Shown: positions 164-34,637 of the stretch, piece after piece
Layout: each line of letters starts with the position of its first letter
Numbering within the stretch: the stretch's first letter is position 1
IMG/VR virus record: IMGVR_UViG_3300015341_000001
Location: 1-38,164 of that record
Strand: one strand, 5' to 3'
DNA from: a virus
DNA: 38,164 bases
Notes under the pieces: generated by a model
Database searches by the model: none
What the model was told of the DNA's origin: nothing
Seen by the model: the letters and a program-made list of their open reading frames with translations, nothing else
Program-made: the position numbers and the translations under genes

Positions 164-916
164 GTGGCTAGCTACGAGAACGGCAAGATACCCCCCTCGC
201 TGCTTCGGCGCGTGTCGAACTTCCGCCCGCTCTACAGCGACGTCAATTCGAACGTGGGCAGCGACCTCCTTCGCGAGGACGCATGGGCTGCGCTCAACGT
301 GTTGCAGGCCGAGTTCTACAAGCGCTTCGAGCGCTCGCTCAACGTGTCCGAGGCGTACCGCGGTCTCAACCGGCAGACGGCTGTGTGGCAGAAGTACATC
401 AACGGCGATGGGCCCATGGCTGCGCGTCCCCGTACCTCGAACCACGGCTGGGCGGTCGCCGTCGACTTCGGCTCTGACGTCAACACCTATGGTTCCGCCA
501 CGAAATACTGGATGGACCGCAACGCGCCCCGGTGGGGATGGCACCCCGTCGGCAACAGCTTCGGCAAGCCCGAGGCCTGGCACTTCGAGTTCAAGCCCAA
601 CACCGCAACCGAGACGATCCCCGCGTCATCCGGCGCAACCCCGTTCCCCGAGAAGGAAGAAGACGAAGACGTGGCAACCATACAGGCCGTCTACCTCGAC
701 AAGGCCGGCAGCGAAAGCTCTCCCATCTACGCATCGACCGGCGTCTTCACGTCGTGGGCCGGGTTCGAGGTGACCAGCGTCGGCCGTGCCGACCGCGGCT
801 TCCTCGCCGCTCGCCTGAACGGTGCCGCCATGCTCGGCAAGGTCGAGCGCCTCGGCGACCTTCACGTCGACGCCGCCGGCTGGGAGTTCATCAACTCCAA
901 CCAGCGCGCCAAGTAG
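164..916 (+). CDS. Peptidase M15 (VanY / D-Ala-D-Ala carboxypeptidase-like) cell-wall hydrolase, putative endolysin, with an uncharacterised C-terminal ~90 aa
   Basis: GTG start 8 nt after GAAAGG. Motifs SEAYRGLNRQ, SNHGWAVAVD (SxHxxGxAxD) and EAWHFEF match the H-D-H zinc-ligand signature of the M15B/VanY family. Confidence 0.85.
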   Translation: MASYENGKIPPSLLRRVSNFRPLYSDVNSNVGSDLLREDAWAALNVLQAEFYKRFERSLNVSEAYRGLNRQTAVWQKYINGDGPMAARPRTSNHGWAVAVDFGSDVNTYGSATKYWMDRNAPRWGWHPVGNSFGKPEAWHFEFKPNTATETIPASSGATPFPEKEEDEDVATIQAVYLDKAGSESSPIYASTGVFTSWAGFEVTSVGRADRGFLAARLNGAAMLGKVERLGDLHVDAAGWEFINSNQRAK

Positions 917-13322: not shown

Positions 13323-13494
13323 CGACGACACCCTTGGTCGCTCCGAGGTTGAGCTCGCCCGGTCGCAGGCGTCGCAGGCAGCGGACGCGCCCCTCATCGC
13401 CAAGGTCGACCGCATGCTCGCAGCCCTTCGCGCGGAGCGTGAAACCAATCACTGGGCCGAAAGAGTCAAGCAGGCTTGGCAGGAGGGCCGGTAA
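13309..13494 (+). CDS. Small hypothetical helical protein
   Basis: ATG lies 8 nt after AGGGGG and the gene overlaps its upstream neighbour by 14 nt. 61 aa. Confidence 0.45.
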   Translation: MPRPNDDTLGRSEVELARSQASQAADAPLIAKVDRMLAALRAERETNHWAERVKQAWQEGR

Positions 13495-13495
13495 C

Positions 13496-13849
13496 ATGGA
13501 CTACGTGAACTCTCCGACCGTACTCGCCGCCGGCGACCTCGTGCTCGGCCTCGCGCTCATCCCCGAACTGACGTTTCTTGTCATCTACATGACGACGGCG
13601 AAGTGGTGGAAGACGGCGATCGGTCGCATGTTCGTCATCGCCCAGCTCGCCATCGTCCTCGTCTCGGTGGTCGTGCTCCTCTCCCTCATCCTCGGCACCG
13701 CCTACGCCGGCCGCGACTGGGTTCGCCTCATCGGCTACTCGGCCCACTTCGCCGGACAGATCGTGTTCCTCGTCACGTACCTCTCCACCCGCCGCGCACC
13801 CGCCGCGGCGCACGCCATCCCCAAGACCAGAATGGATACCCGCGCATGA
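13496..13849 (+). CDS. Holin-like membrane protein (3 predicted TM helices)
   Basis: Strong SD AGGAGGG 8 nt upstream. There are three hydrophobic stretches of 20-25 aa and a basic C-terminus. Confidence 0.65.
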   Translation: MDYVNSPTVLAAGDLVLGLALIPELTFLVIYMTTAKWWKTAIGRMFVIAQLAIVLVSVVVLLSLILGTAYAGRDWVRLIGYSAHFAGQIVFLVTYLSTRRAPAAAHAIPKTRMDTRA

Positions 13850-14118
13850 GCCACCACGAAGACAACAGCGACATCGGCAACGAAGACAGCTACTCGGCCA
13901 GCAAGACCCTCGAGGCCGAGACGACCATCAGCCCCAAGATCATTGTCGGCGCTGCGACCGGCCTCGTGCTCGCGATCGTCGTCGCCGTCCTCGGCGCGGT
14001 GACGCCCGACATGCTCGCCAGCCTCGGCGCGTGGGCGCCGCTCGTGTTCGTCGCCATCACCACCGCGGCGACCCAGCTCGGCGCCTACCTCAAGCGCGAT
14101 CCGCTGCGCGAGGTGTAG
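13846..14118 (+). CDS. Holin-like membrane protein (2 predicted TM helices)
   Basis: ATGA overlap. Acidic N-terminus, then IIVGAATGLVLAIVVAVLGAV and WAPLVFVAITTAATQLGAYL. Confidence 0.65.
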   Translation: MSHHEDNSDIGNEDSYSASKTLEAETTISPKIIVGAATGLVLAIVVAVLGAVTPDMLASLGAWAPLVFVAITTAATQLGAYLKRDPLREV

Positions 14119-14134
14119 TCTCCGCACCACCAAG

Positions 14135-14171
14135 CGAAGCCCCGCCGATGACGCACCTCGGCGGGGCTTCG
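14135..14171 (+). terminator. Intrinsic terminator-like hairpin after the membrane-protein cassette
   Basis: 14-bp stem cgaagccccgccga / tcggcggggcttcg with a 9-nt loop. No long U-tract, which is common in high-GC organisms. Confidence 0.6.
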
Positions 14172-14208
14172 TCATGTACGATAGCCCCAGTCCAACCAAG
14201 GAGTGAGA

Positions 14209-14541
14209 ATGCCCGCAGCAGCAGCAGGTAAAGAGGCGGTCGTCGCCGGTTACGCCGCCAACGTCGCCAAGCTGGCGCTCTTCTCCACCGCGGGAGGCGC
14301 TTCGGCCGGCACCGAGCTCTCCGGAGGGTCGCCCGCCTACGCTCGCATCACCCCCGCCGTCACCGGCGCCGGGGCGACCAGGGCACTCGCCGCCACCTTC
14401 AACGTTCCGAGCGGCGCGACCGTCGCGGGCTGGGGCGCGTACGACTCGTCCGGCACCTACGTCGACGGCGGCTCGCTCACGTCGCAGCCGTTCGCGTCGC
14501 AGGGCACGTACGCCCTGACGGTCAACGCCACCGGCGCCTAA
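14209..14541 (+). CDS. Hypothetical A/G/T-rich protein (possible fibre-associated)
   Basis: ATG lies 5 nt after AAGGAG. 110 aa. Beta-type sequence (YARITPAVTGAGATRALAATFNVPSGATVAGWGAYDSSGTYVDGG). Confidence 0.6.
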   Translation: MPAAAAGKEAVVAGYAANVAKLALFSTAGGASAGTELSGGSPAYARITPAVTGAGATRALAATFNVPSGATVAGWGAYDSSGTYVDGGSLTSQPFASQGTYALTVNATGA

Positions 14542-14555
14542 GCTAGGTCGCCCTC

Positions 14556-16046
14556 GTGGCGCTCAAAGTCCTCGACTTCGAGACAGGGCCCGAGGGCGCT
14601 GCGCTCACCAACGCCAACTCTGGGGCGACGCAGGTCAACGCCGCTTCGGGCGGCTCGGCCATCTTCGCCAAAGACGTCGTACGCTCCGGGCTTCTGGGCG
14701 CTCGATTCACCTCTGGGACGAACGCCCTGGCGATCGCCCGGTTCGCCTCGAACGCATCGAACAACACGCTGTCTGTCAGCGTGGTCTTTCAGCACAAGCA
14801 GACCCCCAGCCTGCTGACAGGTGTGCTTTCGGTGCGGCACGGCTCAGGTGTCGCGGCTCGGATCAACTGGAACCCGGACAACAGCGTCAGCGTGGTCGAC
14901 AGTGGCCTCGGCAACACGCTCACCGTGGCGACTGGGCTCACACCCGGGGCGACTTACGAATTGACGATCCGGGCGAAGTCGGCCACGACGACTACTGGAA
15001 CGATCACTGTCGTTCTCTACAGCAACGTGGGCGCCGAAATTGGACGCGCCACCTCTAGCGCGTACAACCTCACGGCCAATGCGCTCGCTGCTGTCGACGT
15101 CGGAATCATCAACACCAACTCCACCGCCGGCACCATCGTCGCTCTTGACTACCTGCAACTCGACGACGGCAACGCGAATGAACTTCGAGCACCAGCAACG
15201 ACGGTGGCCTACAGCGGCACCGGAACCACCACGGCCACCGCAACCGCTACGGGAGCGGGGGCGCCTGCGGCCTCGGGCAACAGCGCCACTACCACTACCG
15301 CTACGGCCAGTGGTTCAGGGTCGATGGCTACGAGTGGGGCAAGTTCAACCACCTCGAGCGCCACGGCCACCGGCGCTGGATCGGCAGCGACTTCCGGCTC
15401 TGCTGCCGCAAGCGCCACTGTGACGACCGTCGGGTCGGGTGTTGTCGCCTTGTCCGGTTCCGCTGCTGCAAGCGCTGCGGCGACCACTTCGAGCGCCGGC
15501 GCTGCTTCGGTCTCAGGCACCTCAAGCGTTACAGCCACCGTCACGACTACGGCTAGTGGGTCGCTAGCGACGGCGGGCAGCGCGGCCACGAGCCCCACCG
15601 TCACGGCGACGCCGAACGGCACCGCCCCCTCGGCGGGCACCGGAACCGCTACGGCCACCGTTACGGCTAGCGGAATGGGCGTCGCGACGCTGTACGGCGT
15701 TGCCGCCACTTCTGCCGCGGTTGCCGCCTCAGCACAAGGTGTGGCCGCGCTACGTGGGGCTGCAGCGGCGTCGGCATCGACCGTGGCGACCGGGCAGGGC
15801 GCGGCCTTCGCTCGCGGTACGGCTTCGACATCGCTGGTCGCCAGCACCGCCACCGATGGCGCTCCGTCGTTCTCCGGTGTCGCATTCACGCTCGCCACGG
15901 TCACTACTGTCGGTGGGCCGACCGTCGCGGCGCATGACGTCGATGTGGCCGTGTGGGCCTTGCCCCGGCGTTACGTGGTGGCGCTGCGGCCAAGGCGGTA
16001 CGATGCGATGACTGTGCCGAACCGCTGGAAAGGCGACCTACGATGA
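14556..16046 (+). CDS. Putative host-recognition fibre: N-terminal LamG/concanavalin-like domain plus 12 exact 20-aa repeats
   Basis: GTG start. Residues 1-205 are jelly-roll-like. Residues ~219-458 carry Gly at 221, 241, 261 ... 441, a strict 20-residue period with no indels. Confidence 0.7.
   Translation: MALKVLDFETGPEGAALTNANSGATQVNAASGGSAIFAKDVVRSGLLGARFTSGTNALAIARFASNASNNTLSVSVVFQHKQTPSLLTGVLSVRHGSGVAARINWNPDNSVSVVDSGLGNTLTVATGLTPGATYELTIRAKSATTTTGTITVVLYSNVGAEIGRATSSAYNLTANALAAVDVGIINTNSTAGTIVALDYLQLDDGNANELRAPATTVAYSGTGTTTATATATGAGAPAASGNSATTTTATASGSGSMATSGASSTTSSATATGAGSAATSGSAAASATVTTVGSGVVALSGSAAASAAATTSSAGAASVSGTSSVTATVTTTASGSLATAGSAATSPTVTATPNGTAPSAGTGTATATVTASGMGVATLYGVAATSAAVAASAQGVAALRGAAAASASTVATGQGAAFARGTASTSLVASTATDGAPSFSGVAFTLATVTTVGGPTVAAHDVDVAVWALPRRYVVALRPRRYDAMTVPNRWKGDLR
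15210..15929 (+). repeat. Coding tandem repeats, 12 x 60 nt (20 aa), diverged at the DNA level
   Basis: Each unit follows the pattern S-G-x-x-A-x-S-A-x-V-T-x-x-G-x-G-x-A-x-L. Phase is kept for 240 residues. Confidence 0.8.
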
Positions 16047-16303
16047 ACAGCTACGATCGCGACAGCGCCGAGTATCTCGAGCTCATCGTCACCGTCGACG
16101 GCGCGGCCGTCACGTCCGGCATCGAGTACGCCGTCACGACCGGCGATGAACGGCCTTCCGCCTGGGCGCCGGTCACAATCGTTGACGGTCGCCCCATGGC
16201 GCTGCTGCAAGGTCGAGCGCCTGGCACGTACGTCGTGTGGGCTCGCGTCACCGCAGGTAGCGAACTCGTCGTCATGCGAGTCGACACCTTCCTCGTGGTG
16301 TAG
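16043..16303 (+). CDS. Small beta-rich hypothetical protein (Ig-like?)
   Basis: ATGA overlap with the upstream gene. 86 aa with alternating hydrophobic pattern (YLELIVTVDGAAV..., GTYVVWARVTAGSELVVMRVDTFLVV). Confidence 0.6.
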   Translation: MNSYDRDSAEYLELIVTVDGAAVTSGIEYAVTTGDERPSAWAPVTIVDGRPMALLQGRAPGTYVVWARVTAGSELVVMRVDTFLVV

Positions 16304-16329: not shown

Positions 16330-18039
16330 ATGGCTGCTAACGACCGCGTGCTTTCTGTCGACTACACTACAAACCTCCCACCTTCGTCGGTTCTTTCCGC
16401 GTGGGACAGCCGTAACGACACTCGCAACGACACTCGTTACTTGCCCATCGGTTCAGGTAGCGGCAGCGCAAGCAGCTCATCGCCCGACATCGCACCCATC
16501 TTCATCGAAACGCGAGACACCGGGTTGGCCGTCAAGTCGCCCGACAACCTCCGCACCGGGCTGCCGACAACCACCTCCACTGGCGGCGGTTACGCATCCG
16601 AACTGGCCATTGCCGTCACGGGAACCAAGGGCAGCAAAGTCCTCACCTCAAGCGAACCATCCAAAGTTGCAGGCCTGGGAACAAACCGTTTCGCCGCCGT
16701 CCTGAACCGAAGCAACGGCACCGACGACTTCTTCGTCACCGTCATGAGCAACGACGGAACGAGTCAAATCACTTTGCGGCGCGCTCTCGCGGCTGACTTC
16801 GCAGGCACCCTCTCGGCAAAGTACGATGCCGTTCTCGGCCAACACCTCACGCAAGCTGCCACCAAGGCGTACGTCCAGCACGCGCTCCGAGCGAACGGGG
16901 CGACTAGTGGCCGCGGCGGAATCCTCGCGGGCACATGGGACGCGCAACCGCCGACCTACAACCAGGCATGGCAGCCCAACGCAGCGCTTGTCGCCTACGG
17001 CAAAATCAACTCCGCGGCACCCATCATCCGTACCGAGCAGACCATTCAGTCAACGCACAACGTTCTCAGCACCGTCGACTTCCTTGAACTGCACCCGTGC
17101 GTCGCTTCGTCCGGCGTGCAGACCGGAACTCACAAGCTCGGGCATGGTTCCGAAGCGACCATCTACACGGGGCGCAAGCCGGCAGTGTTGGAGTTCTACA
17201 CTTCCGCGCTTCGAAGTGGCGAGAGTGGGACCGGCTACACTCTGCGCGTCACGGCTGTCGCGGACGGGGTAACGCTCTACGACCGCGAACACGATGCGTT
17301 CCTGACCCGCGTGAACGTTCCCGTTTCCGGTTTCGACAAGGTGACCGTGAGCGTCACCAACAACAACAGCACGGACACTCCTTACGCGCTATACCTGTCT
17401 AACTTGCTTCTCCGCGAGGCAGGCTCGAGCGGCAAGGTCGGACGCGGCAAGGTCGTCGTCTTGGGCGACTCGTGGGGTGCTTACTACGACGGTGCACTCG
17501 GCAAGGCCATCGCCTCCAAGGCTGGCTCTGCCGTGGTTACGAAAGCTCTCGGCGGGACAACTACGGATTGGGCGCTCGACTGGTTCGACAGCTACGTGTT
17601 GCCCGAAAAGCCCGACGAGTGCTGGATTCACTTCTTCACCAACGATGCAAACCAGACATCCGGCACGTACGTCGCCCCCGACGGCACCACGAAACCGCTG
17701 TGGCCGTCTGGGCTGACATCTGACCAGTCAATGGCCCGGTGGCGTCAGAACCTGCTCACGCTGATTTTCCGGTGCCAGCAGGCCGGTATCCGCCCGGTCA
17801 TCTTCATGCCTGGCGGTACGGCCTCGGAGTCGCAGATGCAACGGCACACCGTGTGGGCACAGGGGCTTGAACGTCCCGCCCTGGTCAACTACCAGCCCAC
17901 AACCACCGAGCTGGCAGATGCAACCGCCTACGTGAACGTCGTCGGCAAACGGACCGGTGCCGTCATGCAGGTGGGCACGTCCCCCAAATATGCTTCTGGC
18001 CCTGCGCCGGCGGATGCTTGGGTGACAGCCACCGCCTAG
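16330..18039 (+). CDS. SGNH/GDSL hydrolase-domain protein (putative polysaccharide esterase, tail spike-like)
   Basis: The C-terminal region (~17446..17859) has block I VVVLGDSWG, block II KALGGTTT and block III HFFTNDAN. I did not identify a DxxH block V. The N-terminal 370 aa are S/T/G-rich and beta-type. Confidence 0.8.
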   Translation: MAANDRVLSVDYTTNLPPSSVLSAWDSRNDTRNDTRYLPIGSGSGSASSSSPDIAPIFIETRDTGLAVKSPDNLRTGLPTTTSTGGGYASELAIAVTGTKGSKVLTSSEPSKVAGLGTNRFAAVLNRSNGTDDFFVTVMSNDGTSQITLRRALAADFAGTLSAKYDAVLGQHLTQAATKAYVQHALRANGATSGRGGILAGTWDAQPPTYNQAWQPNAALVAYGKINSAAPIIRTEQTIQSTHNVLSTVDFLELHPCVASSGVQTGTHKLGHGSEATIYTGRKPAVLEFYTSALRSGESGTGYTLRVTAVADGVTLYDREHDAFLTRVNVPVSGFDKVTVSVTNNNSTDTPYALYLSNLLLREAGSSGKVGRGKVVVLGDSWGAYYDGALGKAIASKAGSAVVTKALGGTTTDWALDWFDSYVLPEKPDECWIHFFTNDANQTSGTYVAPDGTTKPLWPSGLTSDQSMARWRQNLLTLIFRCQQAGIRPVIFMPGGTASESQMQRHTVWAQGLERPALVNYQPTTTELADATAYVNVVGKRTGAVMQVGTSPKYASGPAPADAWVTATA

Positions 18040-23787: not shown

Positions 23788-23979
23788 CTACCCGTTCGTC
23801 ATCGCGTCGAACGCGAAGCCGACGATGAGGGCGAAGAAGCTGAACGCGCCGATGAGGTAGAACAGCACGGCGAGCTTCGGGCGGGGCCTTGTGCGCATCT
23901 CGAGCATAAAACTCGCCGCGAAGAACGACGCACCGAGGAGGCCGACGATCAGCGACAAAGCCGTCCAGTAGTCGGTCAC
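23788..23979 (-). CDS. 2-TM membrane protein
   Basis: GTG start overlaps the upstream TGA, 8 nt after AAGGAG. Two hydrophobic helices. Confidence 0.65.
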   Translation of the reverse strand: MTDYWTALSLIVGLLGASFFAASFMLEMRTRPRPKLAVLFYLIGAFSFFALIVGFAFDAMTNG

Positions 23980-24179
23980 GAAACGTCTCCTTGGTCGAGG
24001 TGGGTCACGATGGCGTGAGCAAGGCGGGGGTGGCGGTTGGCGAGCTGCTTACGTTCCCGCGTAGTGAGCTCGGCCCACGCTTCACCCAGCTCGTCACGTC
24101 GGGGCGGGCGTGCTGCAGCTGGGGCGTCGCGGTGGTCGACCTGGAACGGGGTCGGCGTCACGGCATGCTTCCCGGTCAC
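23976..24179 (-). CDS. Small hypothetical protein
   Basis: GTG 24179 overlaps the stop of the beta-helix gene (GTGA). The longer ORF-track version would overlap that gene and is Arg-rich. Confidence 0.45.
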   Translation of the reverse strand: MTGKHAVTPTPFQVDHRDAPAAARPPRRDELGEAWAELTTRERKQLANRHPRLAHAIVTHLDQGDVS

Positions 24180-25405
24180 GGCGCCACGTACCCGGTGTCG
24201 GCCGAGATCGCGTAATGCGTCTGCGGTGTGACGAGGTTGCCCGACGCGTCGCGTTCCGGCAACGTGGCGGGGTTCTGACCGGCGGCGACCATGGGGCGCA
24301 TGGGCTTGCCCTCGGCGTTGTAGACAAGCGGCTGCGTCTTCTGGTTGCCCCAGAGCTTGACGACGAACAGGCCGCGCGCCCAGCGGGGCGAAGCGTTCCA
24401 CCGCGGGTCGCGGACGATCATCGGGATGTCGTTGTCGGGCAGGGTGCTGCAGCCGTGGCTGATGTGGTTCGTGTCCCAGAGGTTAGCCTGGTCCATGATG
24501 AGCGTCGGGCGAACGTGCTCCCACTGGCCACGAACCCACTCGTGGTTCATGCCCGAGAAGCGACCGCCAGAAAGCATGCTGCCGTTCACGAGGTGGTTGG
24601 CGCACCAGTCGACGGTCACGTCTTCGGTGTAGCCGTCGGTGCTGGGCCTCGAGGTGTCGCCCGCGATCGAGAACGTGAGCCCCGAGTAGAGCGAGTGGTG
24701 CACCTTCGTGCGGATCATCCGGGGCCGGGTCGACCCGTTGAAACCGACGGGCGACGCGCTGACCATGTTGCCGGCCTCGTCGCGGCCGTCGAAGTCGCAG
24801 TCGACGAGCCACGTGTCGATGTCGCGGTACATGTTGTTGTCGAACACCTCGCCCGTGTTCGGTGAATTACCACCGCCGTAAGCGAGGCCGCGGGTCTTGA
24901 CGCGCAGCCACACCTCGTTCCGGCCCATGTAGTTCTGCAGGCCGCCGAAGTGCATCGGCTTGCCGTCGGGACCGGTCTGCGGCGCACCGATGAAGGTGAT
25001 GTCCGACATCGTGCGCTGCTTGCCGCTCGTGGCGTTGTTCGGGCCGAGGCGAAGGAGTCCGGCACCCGCCTGCTTCGGCAGCTCACTGCGGGCGACCTTG
25101 TACTGGAAGCTGTCACGCTTCACGCGGACAACGGTGCCGCCAGCCCGGTCGCCACGAAGGCCCAGCGACTTCGGCGCGTAGGCTGAGTAGTTGTTGACAT
25201 CCGCGTTGTCGATCAGCGCGTAAGTGCCGGCGGGCAGGTAGACGCGCGCTTCGGTGGTGATGCGCTTGAGCGTGGTGCCGAGGTGTTCGCCCGCGATCGG
25301 CTGCGCGACAACCTCGGGGATGCTCGGGAGCACGAACTCGGGCGGAGCGATGGTGTAGCCGACGGTGGCCGTTTCGCCGGCGACCGTGACGGTTGCGCGG
25401 CTCAT
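24176..25405 (-). CDS. Right-handed parallel beta-helix (pectate-lyase-fold) protein, putative polysaccharide-degrading enzyme
   Basis: 409 aa. Contains the YLPAGTYAL motif typical of beta-helix N-termini and repeated short G/N/D-rich turns (FIGAPQTG, GGLQNYMGRN, AYGGGNSPNTG, VDCDFDGRD, SGLTFSIAGD). No signal peptide seen. Confidence 0.65.
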   Translation of the reverse strand: MSRATVTVAGETATVGYTIAPPEFVLPSIPEVVAQPIAGEHLGTTLKRITTEARVYLPAGTYALIDNADVNNYSAYAPKSLGLRGDRAGGTVVRVKRDSFQYKVARSELPKQAGAGLLRLGPNNATSGKQRTMSDITFIGAPQTGPDGKPMHFGGLQNYMGRNEVWLRVKTRGLAYGGGNSPNTGEVFDNNMYRDIDTWLVDCDFDGRDEAGNMVSASPVGFNGSTRPRMIRTKVHHSLYSGLTFSIAGDTSRPSTDGYTEDVTVDWCANHLVNGSMLSGGRFSGMNHEWVRGQWEHVRPTLIMDQANLWDTNHISHGCSTLPDNDIPMIVRDPRWNASPRWARGLFVVKLWGNQKTQPLVYNAEGKPMRPMVAAGQNPATLPERDASGNLVTPQTHYAISADTGYVAP

Positions 25406-25629
25406 GCGGTGGCCGTGTAGATGGCGTAGTTGCCGCCGTCGGCCTTGAGTGTCCAGGTGCGCTCGGCGTCGGTGACTGTGATCGGAAACTTCGCGTCGAC
25501 GACAGCGGTCTCGCCGAGCAAGGTGACCTCGACGTGGAGGCTGCGTCGCTCGGCGAGTTCGGCGCTGAGTTCGATGCTGAGCTCGAGGGGGGTCTTAGTG
25601 GTGTCAACGGATGCCATGAGGCCGGCCAT
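25402..25629 (-). CDS. 75-aa hypothetical protein translationally coupled to the beta-helix gene
   Basis: ATG 25629 lies 6 nt after AAAGGA. Its stop overlaps the next ATG (ATGA). Confidence 0.6.
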   Translation of the reverse strand: MAGLMASVDTTKTPLELSIELSAELAERRSLHVEVTLLGETAVVDAKFPITVTDAERTWTLKADGGNYAIYTATA

Positions 25630-25667: not shown

Positions 25668-25697
25668 AGTATGCGCTTGCAATGAGTGGCGCGTCAA
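25668..25697 (-). promoter_or_regulatory. Putative leftward promoter TTGACG-N18-CATACT
   Basis: Minus-strand reading: cTTGACGcgccactcattgcaagcgCATACT, ~35 nt upstream of the SD of the 25629 gene. It shares the cTTGACGCGYCACT element with the promoters at 34634 and 36980. Confidence 0.4.
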
Positions 25698-25704
25698 GTA
25701 GGAT
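25677..25704 (+). promoter_or_regulatory. Putative rightward promoter TTGCAA-N16-TAGGAT for the RHH gene
   Basis: The hexamers are interleaved with those of the leftward promoter. The SD GAAAGGAG and the ATG 25737 lie downstream. Confidence 0.4.
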
Positions 25705-25736
25705 GGGAGAATCTTTTCCGAACGAAAGGAGCCGAC

Positions 25737-25919
25737 ATGGCTTCCCCCACCGGCCAGGCCGGCACCGCAAAGTACAGCAAGCAGCTGGTCATCGCCGCCA
25801 CCCCCGACATGCGGGCTCGCATCGACGCCGAGGCGGCGACCAACCGCGTCTCGATCAGCGAAGTCGCCCGCACCTACATCGAGCTCGGCATGCAAGCGGC
25901 CGACGGGCTCGTGGAGTAG
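25737..25919 (+). CDS. Ribbon-helix-helix (CopG/Arc-like) transcriptional regulator
   Basis: 60 aa. Beta strand KQLVIAATPDM, then helix RARIDAEAA, then helix SISEVARTYIELG. SD GAAAGGAG. It is the only plus-strand gene inside the leftward arm. Confidence 0.65.
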   Translation: MASPTGQAGTAKYSKQLVIAATPDMRARIDAEAATNRVSISEVARTYIELGMQAADGLVE

Positions 25920-25963: not shown

Positions 25964-26013
25964 GCAACGCCCCGACCGGGAAAGCCGCGAGAGCCGCTAG
26001 GTCGGGGCGTTGC
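25964..26013. terminator. Bidirectional terminator hairpin between convergent genes
   Basis: Perfect 14-bp stem gcaacgccccgacc / ggtcggggcgttgc with a 22-nt loop, followed on the plus strand by ttcgtta. Confidence 0.65.
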
Positions 26014-26017
26014 TTCG

Positions 26018-26239
26018 TTACGCGGGACTGATGACCGTGACGATGATGCGCCAGGTGAAGTGATCCCATTTGCCATCGCGGGCACTCGTCACCGTGGCGC
26101 CCTCGGGCACCTTCGCGGCGAACTGCCGCGCCCACAGCGCCGGGTCCGTTTCGCGCAGCTCGTGCAGCAGCTTGAACGTGCCGCGACCGGTGCGGAACGT
26201 CGCCACGAGGTCATGTTCGAGCGGCTCGAGGTGGGTCAT
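26018..26239 (-). CDS. Hypothetical protein
   Basis: 73-aa ORF with an ATGA overlap with the methyltransferase gene. Confidence 0.6.
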   Translation of the reverse strand: MTHLEPLEHDLVATFRTGRGTFKLLHELRETDPALWARQFAAKVPEGATVTSARDGKWDHFTWRIIVTVISPA

Positions 26240-26805
26240 TTGACCAGCGCCCTGATCGTCTTGTAGGCATCCTCAGCGTCGCGGTTGATTCCGTTGGACT
26301 TGTCCCAAATCAGCAGGCAGCACCCGAACGGCGGGCGGTCGCCCTTCGGGCCGATCGTCACGTCGCGACGTTCGAAACGCATACGGCCGGGCAAGAACTC
26401 GACGCGAAGGGGCGAGCCTGGGCGGTCGCGTTTCGGCTCGACAAGCTCCTGCCACCACTTCTGCTCCGGCCGGTTCGCCGGTAGCAGCATGACGATCCCG
26501 CGCGTCTGTTCGTACTCTTCCCACGCCTTCGACACCCAGTCGTATAGGTTCGAGTACGGCGGATTGCACCAGACGCGCTCACCGGCCCACGACTGCTCAA
26601 GACCGTTGTCCGCCCGAGTGAAGTAGCGCGGTGCCTTGGTGTTGTGAGGCGCTGCGGCAACGTCGAGAGTGAACGGCTGACCGAAGCGATCTTCGAGGCC
26701 TCGCACGAACTCCGGCTGCGTGCCGCGGTCGTCCACCTCATCGAGGGCGCCACGCGCGCCCGTTTGCTGCGGGTGGTTCTGCGCTTTGAATCCAACGATG
26801 CTCAT
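26236..26805 (-). CDS. DNA N6-adenine methyltransferase (phage Dam-like, orphan)
   Basis: FTLDVAAAPHNTKAPRYFT...WAGERVWCNPPYSNLYDWVSKA...IVMLLPA, with the NPPY catalytic motif. The internal ATG 26805 was chosen because the upstream extension is Arg/Pro-rich. Confidence 0.85.
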   Translation of the reverse strand: MSIVGFKAQNHPQQTGARGALDEVDDRGTQPEFVRGLEDRFGQPFTLDVAAAPHNTKAPRYFTRADNGLEQSWAGERVWCNPPYSNLYDWVSKAWEEYEQTRGIVMLLPANRPEQKWWQELVEPKRDRPGSPLRVEFLPGRMRFERRDVTIGPKGDRPPFGCCLLIWDKSNGINRDAEDAYKTIRALVK

Positions 26806-26954
26806 CGCAGGGCCTCGCACTGGCCGAGGCTGCGGTGGGCGATGAAGAGGCGTTTGCCGAAGTCGGGGTCGCCCGCGGCGGGCGTGCCGAGCTTCATGCC
26901 GCACTCGCCACACGTGATGATCGGCGCGGGTGCGGTGGGGGTCGTGGCGGTCAT
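26802..26954 (-). CDS. 50-aa Cys-containing peptide coupled on both sides
   Basis: Hand translation gives MTATTPTAPAPIITCGECGMKLGTPAAGDPDFGKRLFIAHRSLGQCEALR. ATGA overlaps with both the primase stop and the methyltransferase start. Confidence 0.5.
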   Translation of the reverse strand: MTATTPTAPAPIITCGECGMKLGTPAAGDPDFGKRLFIAHRSLGQCEALR

Positions 26955-29395
26955 CGTTTGGCCTTTCGAGGTGACGTGGTGGGGCGCGACGCGATGTCGG
27001 TGACAAGAGCGTCGCCCGGGTTGGTGATGGTGCCTTCGGTGTCGCGGTACTTCACGCCCAACAGGCTCATTGCTACGACGGGGGGCTTGACGCCAAACGC
27101 CCGCGTAGGCATCGACGGCACGTTCTTCAAGCCGAACCGTACGACGTGCTTCTCGATCGACGGCAAGGAGACGTGCCCTGAAAACCGGCCCGAGATGAGC
27201 GAGTCGGACCAGGGGTGTTGCGACCTTTGCTCGAGGAACCGATTAAAATCGTCGCAGAGTTGCCGGATGGGGATGGCGTAACCAGGGGCGAGCTCGAGGT
27301 GGTCGCGAACGTACGCGAGGATCGGGTCAGCCTCCATGCGCCAGTCCTCGGTGTCGGACTCGACACGCTTCGGCATGGCGGGCATGACCTTGCCGGCGGC
27401 GTACCACTCGATGGCGCCTTGAACGAGCCACCGCAACACGGCTGCCGAGGGAGTGGTGAACGCGGGCTTGAGTCGCGGGTCACCGTGACGGTCCGAGCTA
27501 CCCTGCAGCTCGGAAGAGGGCTTGACGAAGCGCCAGGGGAACTCGACCAGGCCGAGCCGGCGCCATGTTCCGTGGTCCGTTTCGGCAATGACGGGGCGGT
27601 AGTTCGTTGAAATGAACAGGGCGTGGGTCGCCTGCCACTCGATCGTGTCCTGGCGCATGCGACGGGCCCTGATCTTGTCCGTACCCACGGTGTCTTTCAA
27701 TCGGGCAACGTCGAGGTTCCGGCCTTCGGCGAGTTCTTCCGCGATGGCAATACGCGCGCCCATGAGGTCGGTGAGCTCGGTGGAGTGCGCCCCCGGCTGC
27801 GACATGAGAATCTGCTTGGACACAGTGACCGAGTAGTTGCCCGTGGCGTATCGCACGCCGTCGAGGATGGTCGACTTGCCGTTCTCGCCACCGCCTCGGA
27901 TGATCGGCATGACCGCATCGTCGGGCGTGTAGCCGGTGCAGGCTTGGCCGAAGCGGACCTGCATCCACTTCGCCACCTTCTTCGTGGAGAACGCATTGAG
28001 CGCTTTGGCCCACAATTCTTCTTCCACCGGGTCGACGTCGAGCAGGTACTCGGCGCCGGCGATCTTGGTGAAGAGATAGGCCGGGTCGTGCTCGAGCAGC
28101 TCGCCGGTGCGGAGGTCGACGACGCCGTTCTGCACGTTGAGTAGGTCCGGGTGCGAGTCGAGCGCTTCGGCCTCTTCGGCAACGATGCCAAGTGCGAGGC
28201 GCGCGATCGAGACGATGCGGCTGCGCTGCAGAAGAGTGGTGATCGCGGGGATGCGTTGCTTCTCTTCGCGCATGATCGCGCCGTGCACTTCTTCGGCCAC
28301 GATCTTCTTGACCAGCCGGCGCGTCGCCTCGAAGAGGGAAGTCTCCGGTGCGGTGACCCACACCTTGCCGTCGTAGCGGAGTAGGCCGGTGCCCTCGACG
28401 GTGGTCCAGTGGCCGCGAATCCTGTCGGCGATCTCCTCGGCGACGGGAGAGTCCTCGAGGTAGCGGGCAGACCCCTGCGGTTCAACGGGGCCTTCGGCTT
28501 TTCCCTCGGCCCTCGACTTGAGCTGTTTGCGCTCGGCCTTGGTGATCTCGAACGTGACGGGCGGGGCGCCATAGTGAGCGACCGAGCCCTCGAGCGCGGC
28601 ATCCCAGTGACGGTCGTACTCGGGGAAGTCCTGCACGTAGGTGGTGCGGGCTCGGTCGAGCGCTTCGGCAACGCCGGGGCGGCCCTCGGCTCCGAGCTGC
28701 ACGAGGCGGGTGACCGCATCAAGCATGTCGCCGTGGGACATGCCGTCGGCGGTGACGGCCTTGCGTGCTGCCTTGACTTCGGCGTCAGGCTTGCCGGCTC
28801 GGAGACGGGCGAACCACGCGTCGACGGGGAGTGAGTCGCCGCGTGGTGCTACGGCGTCCCTGCGGGGCACCAGGGCCCAGTCAGGGGCGGGTGCGAGCTT
28901 CGGGGCAGAGGTGAGCGCGTCGCCGTAGTAGACCGCAAAGCCGTTGCCGCTGCGGATGTCGACGTGATCGACGGGGTGGTCCGTGGCGATGGTGAGCTCT
29001 ACCCCCTCGGGGGCGGCGTAGAGGTAGTGACTCCCGCCGCTAGGGGTGAGGTAGTTCAGCGTGTTGCGCCACTCGGGGTAAGCCTCGTCGATGTCCGCGG
29101 CCTCGAGGTGGAGCGAGCCCGAGCCTGAGCATCCGGCGGGATGGGTCTTGGTGTTGCACCCCTTCTCGTCGATGTCGACCACGACGAGGCCGGAGCGGCC
29201 GGTGTGGACGCCGATGTAGGCCCCGGGGAAGTCGATCGACCACCACGTGGCGATCTGCTCGGGGTCGGTGGTCGCCTCGTCGTTCCAGCGGACGTAGGGC
29301 TGCTTCCCGGCCTTCGGGTCGGGGTTGACGGGGAAGACGTACCAGCCGGCCTCGCGAGCCAAGGAGAGGGCGACGTCGAGCGGGTCGCGGGTCAT
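26951..29395 (-). CDS. Bifunctional primase-polymerase / D5-type (superfamily 3) helicase
   Basis: N-terminal prim-pol motifs (YVFPVNP, VVVDIDEKG, PSGGSHYLY) and a C-terminal P-loop IIRGGGENGKST. 814 aa. Confidence 0.9.
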   Translation of the reverse strand: MTRDPLDVALSLAREAGWYVFPVNPDPKAGKQPYVRWNDEATTDPEQIATWWSIDFPGAYIGVHTGRSGLVVVDIDEKGCNTKTHPAGCSGSGSLHLEAADIDEAYPEWRNTLNYLTPSGGSHYLYAAPEGVELTIATDHPVDHVDIRSGNGFAVYYGDALTSAPKLAPAPDWALVPRRDAVAPRGDSLPVDAWFARLRAGKPDAEVKAARKAVTADGMSHGDMLDAVTRLVQLGAEGRPGVAEALDRARTTYVQDFPEYDRHWDAALEGSVAHYGAPPVTFEITKAERKQLKSRAEGKAEGPVEPQGSARYLEDSPVAEEIADRIRGHWTTVEGTGLLRYDGKVWVTAPETSLFEATRRLVKKIVAEEVHGAIMREEKQRIPAITTLLQRSRIVSIARLALGIVAEEAEALDSHPDLLNVQNGVVDLRTGELLEHDPAYLFTKIAGAEYLLDVDPVEEELWAKALNAFSTKKVAKWMQVRFGQACTGYTPDDAVMPIIRGGGENGKSTILDGVRYATGNYSVTVSKQILMSQPGAHSTELTDLMGARIAIAEELAEGRNLDVARLKDTVGTDKIRARRMRQDTIEWQATHALFISTNYRPVIAETDHGTWRRLGLVEFPWRFVKPSSELQGSSDRHGDPRLKPAFTTPSAAVLRWLVQGAIEWYAAGKVMPAMPKRVESDTEDWRMEADPILAYVRDHLELAPGYAIPIRQLCDDFNRFLEQRSQHPWSDSLISGRFSGHVSLPSIEKHVVRFGLKNVPSMPTRAFGVKPPVVAMSLLGVKYRDTEGTITNPGDALVTDIASRPTTSPRKAKR

Positions 29396-32288: not shown

Positions 32289-32536
32289 CCTCCGAAGCTG
32301 TTCACTACCTCGCCATTCAGGTCGAGTCCTATTGCGACTCGACTCGCCTCGGCATTTTCGACACGCTGGAAGCGGCGCAGAAGTACATCGAAAACGAACC
32401 GGGCGCCGAGGCTGTGGACGTGCAGGGATGGCGGGGCGACGAGCAAGTTCTTGACTCAGCGCGGTGGAGCCCAGCAAGCCACCCTTACAAGTGGACGACG
32501 AAGTACTACGCGAACGGCCGCGAGGTTAAGTCATGA
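32285..32536 (+). CDS. Small hypothetical protein
   Basis: ATGA overlap. 83 aa. Confidence 0.6.
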   Translation: MTSEAVHYLAIQVESYCDSTRLGIFDTLEAAQKYIENEPGAEAVDVQGWRGDEQVLDSARWSPASHPYKWTTKYYANGREVKS

Positions 32537-33105
32537 CCGCCGCCCCGAACTTCCGAGAGCTGATCGCCGTGCGCGTGATGCGCGAGCAAGAGTGGGCTTA
32601 CGAGCAGCGCTCGCGCCACCTCTCGTATCGCGAAATGCGCCGGCGCTCCATCCTCCCGACGTACCAAGGCGGCCTCGGCTACGACGTCAGCGAGCACACG
32701 CTCAAGGGCCTCGTCACCGGCTACACGGAACGCATGCGCGAGACGTTGCAGGAGTCGCCGGAGTTCTACATGCACCGCGAGCTCGCCGACCTCGAAGAGC
32801 AGTACCGCGTCGCCGCCGCGCTGGCCGACCCGATCGACCGCAGCGCGACGATGCTGGCCGCCTACGCGTTGGGCTTCGAGTCTGTCGAGGAACTGCTCGC
32901 CGAGTCGCCCGCGTCTGCCGTGCCGCAGGACGGTCGCGTCATCCTTGCCGCGTTGGCGACGATGCGGCAGACAGGCGAGCGCCGCGCGAAGCTGCTCGGC
33001 CTCGACGCCGCGACGACGCACAAGCTCGACGTCACCGTCACCGATGCCGTCGACGCCGAGGTCGCGCGCCTCGCCGCCGAGCTGGACAGCGCCGCCACCT
33101 CGTGA
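32533..33105 (+). CDS. Terminase small subunit (by position)
   Basis: 190 aa, directly upstream of and coupled to the large terminase. Helical and charged. No specific motif recognised. Confidence 0.55.
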   Translation: MTAAPNFRELIAVRVMREQEWAYEQRSRHLSYREMRRRSILPTYQGGLGYDVSEHTLKGLVTGYTERMRETLQESPEFYMHRELADLEEQYRVAAALADPIDRSATMLAAYALGFESVEELLAESPASAVPQDGRVILAALATMRQTGERRAKLLGLDAATTHKLDVTVTDAVDAEVARLAAELDSAATS

Positions 33106-34637
33106 CCCCCCTCGAGCGTGTCCGCGCGAAGCTTGCCGCGACGGCGCCGAACGGCGAGTGGGACGGGCCGGCGTACGCGTCGCCGCTGGGGCGGAAGGCT
33201 GCGACGTATGGCGACCCTCTCGCGTTTGCCGTCGTGTACCTCGGTCACCACCTCCGCGACGCCGACGGCCGCATCACCCTCTCCTCGATCCACGTTGCGT
33301 GGGCCGAGTCCGCGAAGCGGTGGATGCGCGTCGATACGGAGCCGATGGACGATCGCCGGAGTGAGGTCGCTCCGCGCGAGTCGGGCAAATCGACCTGGCA
33401 CTTTCTTCTGCTGCCGATGTGGGCCGCGGCACACGGGCACAAGCGCTTCGCCGCCGCTTTCGCGAACACCCCGTCGCAGGCTGAGACTCAGCTCGCCTCG
33501 TTCAAGGCCGAGCTCGGCAGCAACGTGCTGCTTCGTGCCGATTACCCCGAGCTGTGCGAGCCCAAGACGCGGGGGCGCGGAACGGTGGAGGCTGACCGGG
33601 TGTCGCTCTACCACGCGCAGAGCGGCTTCGTGTTCGCCGCATCGGGGATGGATTCGGCGAACCTCGGGCTCAAGGTCGGCAACACGCGACCCGACCTCCT
33701 TATCATGGACGACATCGAGCCGCACGAGTCGAACTACTCGCCGGCGCTGGCCGCGAAGCGTCTCGACACTTTGCAGTCTGCGATCCTCCCGCTCAACATT
33801 CGCGCGTCGGTGATCCTTGTCGGCACGGTGACGATGCCAGGCAGCGTGGTGCATCAGGTCGCGCAGTACGGCAACGGCTCGCGCGCGCCAGAGCTGCAGT
33901 GGGTCGCCGAACAGCACATCGTTGCGCGCCACTTTCCCGCGCTCGTCACCGAGGACGACGGGTCGCGCGTGTCGATTTGGCCGGAGAAGTGGCCGACACA
34001 GATGCTGCTCGACATGCAGCACACGCGGCACTACCTGAAGAACTACGCCAACGATCCGCGCGGTGGCGAGGGCGGGTACTGGACGATCGAAGACCTGAAG
34101 CGCGAGCCGGCCGACAGCGGCCTGGTCATCACGCACCGGCTTCTCAGCGTCGACCCCGCCGTCACGACAAAGGGGACGAGCGACTTCACCGGCCTCACGG
34201 TCCTCGGGTTCAGTCGCCCGGAAGGCCGCGTCGTGGTCCTCGGTTCGTGGCAGGTGAAGCTCGACCCGGAGAAGCTGCGGGCTCGCGTGCTCGACATCGT
34301 GAACGACTACGACGTCGGGCTGCTGCTGGTCGAGACGAACCAGGGCGGCGACCTTTGGCGCGGCATCTTCCACCACCTACCGATCCCGCTGAAAACCGTG
34401 CACCAGTCCGCGTCGAAGGAGGTACGCGCTGCCGAGGCGCTGAACCACACGCAGCGCGGCAAGGTGACACTCGCCGAGGGCGCCGACCTCGCAGCGCTCG
34501 AGGCGCAGCTCGTGTCGTTCCCGAACGCGCCGCACGACGACATGCTCGACTCGTTCACGTCGGGCGTCATTTACTTCATGTCGACCACGAAGAAGCGCCG
34601 CAGCGGCGTCGGCGCGACGAGCGTCGCGTACGCTTGA
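33102..34637 (+). CDS. Terminase large subunit
   Basis: GTG 33102 overlaps the upstream TGA. Walker A APRESGKST and Walker B DLLIMDDIE, with a nuclease-type C-terminal half. The ORF-track N-terminal extension is Arg-rich and overlaps the small-subunit gene. Confidence 0.9.
   Translation: MTPLERVRAKLAATAPNGEWDGPAYASPLGRKAATYGDPLAFAVVYLGHHLRDADGRITLSSIHVAWAESAKRWMRVDTEPMDDRRSEVAPRESGKSTWHFLLLPMWAAAHGHKRFAAAFANTPSQAETQLASFKAELGSNVLLRADYPELCEPKTRGRGTVEADRVSLYHAQSGFVFAASGMDSANLGLKVGNTRPDLLIMDDIEPHESNYSPALAAKRLDTLQSAILPLNIRASVILVGTVTMPGSVVHQVAQYGNGSRAPELQWVAEQHIVARHFPALVTEDDGSRVSIWPEKWPTQMLLDMQHTRHYLKNYANDPRGGEGGYWTIEDLKREPADSGLVITHRLLSVDPAVTTKGTSDFTGLTVLGFSRPEGRVVVLGSWQVKLDPEKLRARVLDIVNDYDVGLLLVETNQGGDLWRGIFHHLPIPLKTVHQSASKEVRAAEALNHTQRGKVTLAEGADLAALEAQLVSFPNAPHDDMLDSFTSGVIYFMSTTKKRRSGVGATSVAYA

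Follow-up and report, generated by a model that had tools for sequence, protein, structure and literature searches.

We analyzed a gene for a 409-amino-acid (aa) beta-helix protein, here called the enzyme, together with the small gene directly upstream of it, here called the partner gene, in IMG/VR virus record IMGVR_UViG_3300015341_000001 (positions 1 to 38,164; "the window" denotes this whole stretch of 38,164 nucleotides, nt). The two genes, which we refer to jointly as the cassette, occupy the minus strand, and the locus has the following features, among them several short open reading frames (ORFs).

24176..25405, minus strand: enzyme gene, 409 aa, ATG start; a probable polysaccharide depolymerase
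25402..25629, minus strand: partner gene, 75 aa; ATGA overlap with the enzyme start; central 'GET' hairpin
25668..25697, minus strand: candidate sigma-70-like promoter, TTGACG-18 nt-CATACT, 38 nt upstream of the partner ATG
25686..25919 as listed (GTG at 25686), plus strand: divergent gene for an Arc-like ribbon-helix-helix (RHH) protein, E=7e-4
25964..26013, no strand: perfect 14-bp inverted repeat with a 22-nt loop, between a convergent 73-aa gene (minus strand) and the RHH gene (plus strand)
23976..24179, minus strand: 67-aa ORF; its GTG start overlaps the enzyme stop (GTGA) and its stop overlaps the start of the next gene
23788..23979, minus strand: 63-aa ORF, next after the 67-aa ORF in the same operon; two hydrophobic segments, predicted two-pass membrane protein

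The enzyme gene is real and conserved: a collection of 5.8 billion proteins contains 27 homologs at E 1e-70 to 1e-282, so the ORF is not a chance one, and mean column identity in the 27-homolog alignment is 60%. The open frame has no start codon before the ATG used, and its codon-position GC (0.61/0.50/0.90) is as in other genes of the 66% GC window. Residues 1-17 form the N-terminal 'VTVTVAGETATVGY' hairpin, and the LPAGTY motif that a preliminary description of this DNA had reported for the 409-aa protein was read directly at residues 57-62. That description had also stated that the protein lacks a signal peptide, and a reading of N-terminal hydropathy and charge agrees, with no Sec or TAT leader detected (top 15-residue hydropathy 1.28 within residues 1-60; no charged n-region); clear leaders are present in the cellular homologs P0053 (Subtercola, RR motif, hydropathy 2.07), P0043, and P0105. 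Scans of the enzyme against Pfam (E<=1, including Beta_helix PF13229), PHROG, and NCBIfam gave no match, megablast and tblastn of its gene against 50,697 phage records likewise gave none, and PDB sequence-profile searches with 27 and with 141 family sequences returned nothing significant. Membership of the pectate lyases proper (PL1/PL3/PL9; Pec_lyase_C, Pectate_lyase_3) found no Pfam, NCBIfam, or PDB-profile match, and the GH28 motifs (NTD/DD/GHG/RIK), sought by eye, are absent as a set. Cultured phages were reached instead via distant members of the enzyme family.

Structure prediction assigns the enzyme to the right-handed parallel beta-helix proteins (pectate-lyase-like superfamily). The AlphaFold2 model, built on the 27-sequence alignment, is all-beta with a regular three-strand-per-coil repeat (predicted local distance difference test, pLDDT, 86.9; predicted template-modeling score, pTM, 0.86), and its helix spans residue ~30 to residue ~400; ahead of the helix there is just a hairpin of ~17 residues, modeled at low confidence, and no N-terminal particle-binding domain. 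When the model was compared with PDB using Foldseek, the best 50 matches were all of beta-helix type at a probability of ~1.0, and nearly all are carbohydrate-active enzymes or tailspikes. The top match is the AlgE4 epimerase (2pyh, E=1.5e-5), and others include the GH87 alpha-1,3-glucanase (6k0q, E=5e-5, template-modeling score, TM, 0.47), PfbA, YbhC, RbmB lyase, and fucoidan lyase, as well as the Sf6, LKA1, CBA120, and phi29 spikes; in BFVD, the matches are pectate-lyase-superfamily proteins and tail spikes, the named top matches being all of beta-helix type, again at a probability of ~1.0. Identities to the structural matches are 8-13%, and therefore the fold is established but not the specific enzyme family. 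The preliminary description had a pectate-lyase-fold beta-helix protein with features typical of carbohydrate-active enzymes; the predicted structure and the Foldseek matches bear out the fold and make carbohydrate activity very probable.

A profile search of 1.84 billion representatives at 50% identity recovered 295 family proteins at E<=1e-3. In alignments of 141 and 103 diverse members, E186 (consensus PGETF) and E289 (consensus GxNHE) are the sole invariant residues, and Q143, H236, and N287 are near-invariant. On this conservation, E186 and E289 are the most likely catalytic candidates, and the pair of invariant glutamates suggests a hydrolase. The motif N287-H288-E289 may be comparable to the DPH(D/E) motif of AlgE/AlgG enzymes. 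Distant members are fused to PKD, GH71, GH16, GDSL (SGNH), SASA, PA14, CBM96, and LGFP domains, and many have Sec/TAT leaders, e.g., a Subtercola boreus 'secreted protein'. Eight of the 103 distant members match Pfam Beta_helix PF13229 at E<=0.001; the scores of the Microbacterium phage proteins Pumpernickel gp222 (34.3 bits) and Lifes gp28 (28.5 bits) compare with a gathering threshold of 25.9. The profile of the window's close family (A1) matches Pumpernickel gp222 at E=8.6e-28 and Lifes gp28 at E=2e-11, and a further profile (A3) matches these cultured Microbacterium phage proteins at E=3e-86 and 1e-102 (Lifes gp28, Pumpernickel gp222). In GenBank, homologs from cultured Microbacterium phages are labeled either 'glycoside hydrolase', as for Pumpernickel gp222, or 'tailspike protein', as for Lifes gp28. 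By these profile links, the enzyme is a diverged representative of a family that existing annotation already places among phage glycanases. Two peptide patterns run against GTDB representative genomes gave no relative; since family members do occur in Frigoribacterium and Subtercola genomes, these patterns were probably too stringent. Literature searches found no functional study of the family.

The main oddity of the locus, overlooked in the preliminary description, is the 75-aa partner, which is co-inherited with the enzyme and has a hairpin motif in common with the enzyme N-terminus. The partner gene has its own Shine-Dalgarno sequence (AAAGGA), and the ATGA overlap upholds the coupling of the two genes that had been proposed earlier. 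Pfam, PHROG, and NCBIfam scans of the partner gave no match. Its homologs, of 66-77 aa, are encoded directly before the enzyme gene, whose start they overlap or adjoin, at loci L001-L011, L013, L016, L017, and L018 (loci in other phages are numbered with the prefix L). We ran a hidden Markov model (HMM) of the partner on six-frame translations of all loci, and it matched every locus with a type-A enzyme N-terminus, i.e., an enzyme starting 'M(S/x)xVTVxVAGETATVDY', in at least six lineages. The six loci with other enzyme N-termini gave no match (0/6):

L012, L015, and Lifes: 'W..GR.PI' peptide and Pro-rich linker; no partner
L014: 'LRFKLGD' N-terminus; no partner
Pumpernickel: coiled-coil N-terminus; no partner
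Subtercola chromosome: TAT leader; no partner

The invariant central motif of the partner, VxVTxxGETAxV, copies the N-terminal hairpin of the enzyme. When the first 19 residues of each enzyme were compared with its own partner, the best ungapped match fell on the GET hairpin in all seven of the seven lineages; among 300 composition-preserving shuffles per lineage, 0, 2, 35, 2, 0, 17, and 0 reached the observed score. In L016, AGQ appears in the enzyme N-terminus and in the partner alike. Most likely, to judge from this pattern, the enzyme hairpin pairs physically with the matching hairpin of the partner, so that the two proteins would form a complex. The AlphaFold2 model of the partner is a six-strand all-beta fold. 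Newly described here are a small partner that is strictly co-inherited with the enzyme and has a hairpin in common with it, the joint movement of the two genes, and the signature residues of the family; literature searches found no description of the partner, of the pair moving as a unit, or of the signature residues.

The surroundings of the cassette differ from phage to phage. L007 and L008 (88% identity) are syntenic with the window. In the temperate phages L001/L009, L002-L004, L005/L006, L010, and L011, partner and enzyme are encoded just after the endolysin/holin on the structural strand; a GDSL esterase gene follows the cassette in L001-L006, the loci where the downstream region was inspected, and divergent helix-turn-helix (HTH) genes precede it in L001-L004. 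In L013 and L016, the cassette shortly precedes the terminase genes; it comes directly after a collagen-like tail-fiber gene in the former (PHROG E=2e-46) and is preceded in the latter by the gene for a 569-aa protein with a LamG-like N-terminus and then a 100-aa gene. In the larger phages L017 (RtcB, NAPRTase) and L018 (rIIA/rIIB, PnuC) it is in non-structural regions, and Pumpernickel gp222 is encoded among phosphatase, nucleotidase, and dNMP-kinase genes. Other proteins of L001, L002, and L005 that were tested, including tail proteins, had no tblastn match in the window at E<=1e-3, the endolysin excepted. These comparisons indicate that the cassette moves between unrelated phages as a unit, with the enzyme N-terminus and the partner conserved.

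In the window, the cassette appears to head its own transcription unit. The 104-bp divergent intergenic region between the partner and RHH genes is ~98% identical in L007 and L008, compared with only 84-88% for the flanking proteins, and the promoter is called because of its position and this conservation, not because of enrichment. The RHH gene, the sole plus-strand gene in the leftward arm, more likely starts at ATG 25734, after the Shine-Dalgarno sequence AAAGGAG and with a product of ~61 aa, than at GTG 25686; this product is a candidate regulator of the common intergenic region and probably controls the promoter. The preliminary description had the enzyme gene directly under an RHH-controlled promoter: the promoter candidate 38 nt upstream, the divergent RHH gene, and the conserved intergenic region speak for the arrangement, and control by RHH is its conjectural part. 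The inverted repeat at 25964..26013 is likely a bidirectional terminator, although it has no T-run; as such, it would make the cassette operon separate from the primase/methylase unit. Downstream of the enzyme gene, the 67-aa ORF (23976..24179) is 61% identical in L008, and the 63-aa membrane-protein gene is followed by an HTH gene. A plus-strand ORF at 23991-24215, proposed by a simple caller based on GC at third codon positions (GC3), is probably spurious.

All recognizable virion genes of the window are on the plus strand, which encodes terminase, portal, MuF-like protein, endolysin, scaffold, capsid, tape measure, Dit, minor tail proteins, and holin; the minus strand encodes EndoVII, exonuclease, a LuxR-type HTH protein, the cassette, a Dam methylase, and a PrimPol/D5 helicase. 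The enzyme gene is thus in a leftward replication and recombination arm, on the opposite strand from the virion genes, as had been described. The following plus-strand features bear on its possible function.

164-916, plus strand: endolysin, VanY-like peptidase; between the MuF-like minor capsid and scaffold genes
13334-13849, plus strand: holin
14556..16046, plus strand: 496-aa protein, N-terminal ~210 aa LamG/lectin-like by pattern
15953..16303, plus strand: ORF of ~86-116 aa, homolog of the 100-aa gene directly upstream of partner and enzyme in L016
16330..18039, plus strand: 569-aa protein with a probable C-terminal SGNH esterase domain, GDS motif near residue 379

The genes for the 496-aa and 569-aa proteins are downstream of the holin gene, on the other arm from the cassette. 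The N-terminal domain of the 496-aa protein is homologous to proteins encoded beside the enzyme gene in L012, L015, and L016; "LamG-like" denotes a reading of this shared N-terminal sequence pattern, without domain-search support. The rest of the protein consists of ~250 aa of Ala/Thr/Ser/Gly repeats. Coding at 13850-16300 (plus strand) is ambiguous, the best GC3 frame changing three times, and the odd codon statistics of this region are due to the repeats. In the 569-aa protein, the SGNH signals are three, independent of each other but each weak (PDB 4oao, E=0.035; Pfam SGNH, E=0.06; a Vibrio phage SGNH protein, E=8e-4), and the protein is a probable counterpart of the GDSL esterases adjoining the cassette in other phages. 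At the N-terminus of the 569-aa protein, 'RVLSVDYTTNLPP' is similar to the 'TVDYTV..LP' segment located after the hairpin in the beta-helix proteins. Several family members join the beta-helix to LamG-like/PKD and/or GDSL or SASA domains (P0120, 1047 aa; P0050, 1119 aa; P0151; P0172; P0103) and may be read as Rosetta-stone fusions, with parts that correspond to separate window genes. P0120 has a LamG-like N-terminus, PKD, GDSL, and the beta-helix in a single chain, a fusion which argues that the three separately encoded window proteins would work on one substrate.

That the enzyme is glycan-active we consider likely, with high confidence: this is what its fold and invariant acidic residues suggest, along with family members that are domain fusions or secreted cellular proteins and with the consistency of the neighboring genes. 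For its mode of action, we tentatively place first among several possibilities that it is an accessory polysaccharide depolymerase, free and released by lysis, which works with the partner. Partner and enzyme would be made together by termination-reinitiation at the ATGA overlap and would form a complex via their matching hairpins; transcription of the pair would start at the sigma-70-like promoter of the cassette, with probable modulation by the divergent RHH protein, in a unit that also carries recombination genes. Since neither the enzyme nor the partner has an export signal, both would be kept in the cytoplasm until holin/endolysin lysis, after which the enzyme would act free, not as an integral tail spike. 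The substrate would be a glycopolymer of the host envelope (exopolysaccharide or wall-linked polysaccharide of a Microbacteriaceae host), and the probable SGNH esterase (16330-18039) and the 496-aa LamG-like protein (14556-16046) would join the enzyme in acting on it; clearance of the polymer around lysed and neighboring cells would allow progeny to spread and adsorb. A free enzyme is favored because the type-A N-terminus and the partner are found across unrelated virion architectures, whereas an anchor would be expected to keep to its virion type; because the cassette is dispensable in virions of the type of the cultured phage Isperia and no anchor domain is present; and because the genes have their own sigma-70-type promoter among replication and recombination genes and recur in non-structural neighborhoods.

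Several observations weigh against this reading. A virion-bound state in this phage is a serious rival, because relatives are encoded in or next to structural genes and fiber-like N-termini occur in the family. The L014 homolog (63% identity, no partner) is encoded between the major tail protein (PHROG E=1e-85) and chaperone/tape-measure genes; the enzyme genes of L012, L013, and L015 are directly after tail-fiber genes; and that of Lifes (gp27-28-29 block) is between capsid and connector genes. Other family members have coiled-coil or Mtd_N N-termini, which are typical of fibers. Promoter-like sites are no commoner in the window than in shuffled sequence. The confidence of the partner model is moderate (pLDDT 72.6), and the model has no significant structural match (best E=0.18, to alpha-crystallin and Ig-like folds). 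By strand pattern, about three coils separate E186 from E289, a long distance for a classical carboxylate pair, and a lyase or epimerase mechanism is equally possible as a hydrolase, AlgE4 being the top structural match.

According to the strongest of the alternatives, which we regard as a real but lesser possibility, the enzyme is attached to the virion as an accessory tail spike, a fiber-tip enzyme, or a neck/head fiber enzyme whose gene lies outside the tail module; the 75-aa partner, together with the N-terminal hairpin of the enzyme, would then be an adaptor or trimerization neck that docks the beta-helix. The structural-operon and post-fiber positions of the homologs given above and the Mtd_N or coiled-coil N-termini fit this possibility, as do the 'tailspike protein' label of Lifes gp28, the lack of a signal peptide in every phage-encoded member inspected, and the resemblance of the fold to that of tailspikes; moreover, phage depolymerases with a beta-helix mostly serve as receptor-binding proteins (review, PMC10792971). 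In L012, L015, and Lifes, the order is fiber gene, beta-helix gene, and a gene for a protein with a LamG-like N-terminus, the last with a PKD domain in L012 and L015 and followed by a GH16 gene in L012. The Lifes block, placed between the major capsid and connector genes, could therefore be a head or neck fiber set. The same three-gene block (fiber-like, beta-helix with 'W..GR.PI', LamG-like) occupies 8005-10803 of L021 (Lifes), 8859-13859 of L012, and 8765-12604 of L015, and so occurs in several actinophage lineages.

The conserved 'W..GR.PI' peptide, which with a Pro-rich linker precedes varied enzyme modules, has the look of an anchor peptide. In Klebsiella phages with anchor-branch systems, a second depolymerase docks via a short N-terminal peptide. 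The 'W..GR.PI' members (type C) resemble these systems in having a short conserved peptide before interchangeable enzyme domains, and a separate small protein could serve as an adaptor in a comparable way; in the window, however, no anchor protein was identified, and it is the enzyme, not the virion type, that the partner accompanies. The cassette is on unrelated virion types with its N-terminus and partner conserved, and for this reason no common docking site is expected. In addition, Isperia has the same set of minor tail genes without the cassette, and the window gene is in one transcription unit with recombination genes behind a sigma-70-like promoter. The Sf6 (TSP, 2vbk), LKA1 (gp49, 4ru4), CBA120 (TSP2), and phi29 (gp12, 3gq8) tailspikes share the fold with the enzyme at a Foldseek probability of ~1.0 (TM 0.29-0.45, identity 8-12%), and they are likewise phage-encoded and have no signal peptide. 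Unlike them, the enzyme has no separate N-terminal particle-binding domain and no C-terminal trimerization domain, is encoded outside the tail module, and is a single domain of 409 aa compared with 500-750 aa for the tailspikes. Its best structural matches are the AlgE4 A-module (2pyh), alginate epimerase/lyases (8jaz), and the GH87 catalytic domain (6k0q), which are single-domain beta-helix enzymes of similar size (TM up to 0.47, identity 10-12%). On balance, a free enzyme is slightly favored over a virion-attached one.

We consider it unlikely that the enzyme is an accessory of lysis that removes secondary cell-wall polysaccharide after holin and endolysin have acted, by a logic analogous to that of the mycobacteriophage LysB esterase. 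The temperate relatives, in which the cassette and a GDSL esterase gene are immediately downstream of the endolysin/holin, lend themselves to this explanation, and the window operon continues into the two-pass membrane protein; however, the lysis genes of the window are elsewhere, Isperia-type relatives lyse their hosts without the cassette, and the small membrane protein is not kept beside the cassette in other lineages.

It is improbable, although the lack of a signal peptide would suit it, that the enzyme acts inside the cell by degrading lipid-linked or nucleotide-sugar-derived glycopolymer precursors at the inner membrane face, so that receptor display stops and either superinfection is excluded or progeny are not trapped. 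An operon of early/middle type with a sigma-70-like promoter and a divergent RHH gene would also accord with such a role, as would the recurrence among non-structural genes in L017, L018, and Pumpernickel, but the site of action is extracellular for homologs that have signal peptides or are encoded in structural operons, and the associated CBM, PKD, and LamG-like modules point to an assembled extracellular polymer. Fully polymerized lipid-linked glycopolymer is expected on the cytoplasmic face in ABC-transporter-dependent pathways. An equally low likelihood attaches to the variant in which the cassette is an early-made, mobile two-protein module that degrades such polymer on the cytoplasmic face, as receptor-destroying exclusion or anti-trapping under RHH control, with the partner as an assembly or control subunit and not a virion adaptor. 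Least likely of all is a non-catalytic beta-helix, i.e., an adhesin or binding module, which the presence of the PfbA adhesin among the top structural matches might suggest and against which stand the two invariant glutamates and the near-invariant His, Asn, and Gln in >100 diverse members, the fusions to esterase and GH domains, and the secreted cellular homologs.

The preliminary description had treated the non-structural placement of the gene as distinctive, and this part does not hold. Given the homologs in or next to structural genes (L012-L015, Lifes), a non-structural position is not a family trait, and because homologs also occur in structural operons or after lysis genes, "not a tail spike" is unreadable from position alone. 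Placement outside the tail module is, moreover, already documented for Pumpernickel gp222 and for Curtobacterium prophages (Microbacteriaceae), whose SGNH deacetylase and beta-structured spike-like protein genes come after the lysis modules (Evseev et al., 2023; PMC9862828); by itself, then, the non-structural position is unremarkable. In gene context, the prophage layout matches that of the cassette in L001, L002, and L005 and that of the window genes for the 496-aa and 569-aa proteins; the window enzyme gene differs in being in the leftward arm and not after lysis genes, and a small partner is not described for the prophages (PMC9862828). Lifes gp28, Cassita gp32, WaterT gp31, Shocker gp28, and Pumpernickel gp222, from cultured Microbacterium phages, belong to the same HMM-defined family, have the PGETF and GxNHE motifs in common with the enzyme, and come from hosts of the same bacterial family; Pumpernickel gp222, like the enzyme, is encoded among non-structural genes. 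Unlike the enzyme, these homologs have a W..G..TG peptide or coiled-coil N-termini and no 75-aa partner; they are too distant for tblastn with the window enzyme, and the Lifes-type genes are between capsid and connector genes. The enzyme is thus of a known kind, a phage beta-helix depolymerase, which is sometimes encoded outside the tail module (PMC9862828; annotated cultured homologs).

Its significance is in the family and in the partner. The enzyme family (~295 representatives at 50% identity) is centered on Microbacteriaceae phages, has clear candidate catalytic residues, and is repeatedly associated, in fused or split form, with SGNH esterases and LamG-like or PKD proteins. The Microbacteriaceae include the plant pathogens Clavibacter, Curtobacterium, and Rathayibacter, and phage depolymerases find use against biofilms and capsules and as host-range markers; to our knowledge, nearly all characterized examples are tail spikes of phages that infect Gram-negative bacteria or Firmicutes. 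If the partner is a portable assembly or docking module, this would explain how the enzyme moves between unrelated phages and would provide a handle for engineering.

The window phage has cultured relatives in the lytic Microbacterium phages Isperia, Wyvern, and OscarSo (portal ~50% identity, gene order). Isperia has the same leftward arm without the cassette, RHH, or Dam genes, and has the same four minor tail genes. Isperia gp42 (415 aa), which has the equivalent leftward-arm position, was considered as a hidden homolog of the enzyme and rejected (E>1). The endolysin gene of the window (164-916) shares its unusual position with the Isperia 'endolysin' gp10 and is far from the holin gene (13334-13849). 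The ORF for the Dam-type N6-adenine methyltransferase (26236-27006, minus strand) shares 56 nt with the primase gene, and the Pfam domain in its product begins only at residue 95; the true start is probably internal. No methylase is listed in the annotation of Isperia, the sole cultured relative whose annotation was read. The 728-aa 'terminase' ORF (32451-34637, plus strand) probably has an over-extended 5' end; an ORF in another frame at 32533-33105 has a GC3 of 0.92, and the Isperia large terminase is only 517 aa.

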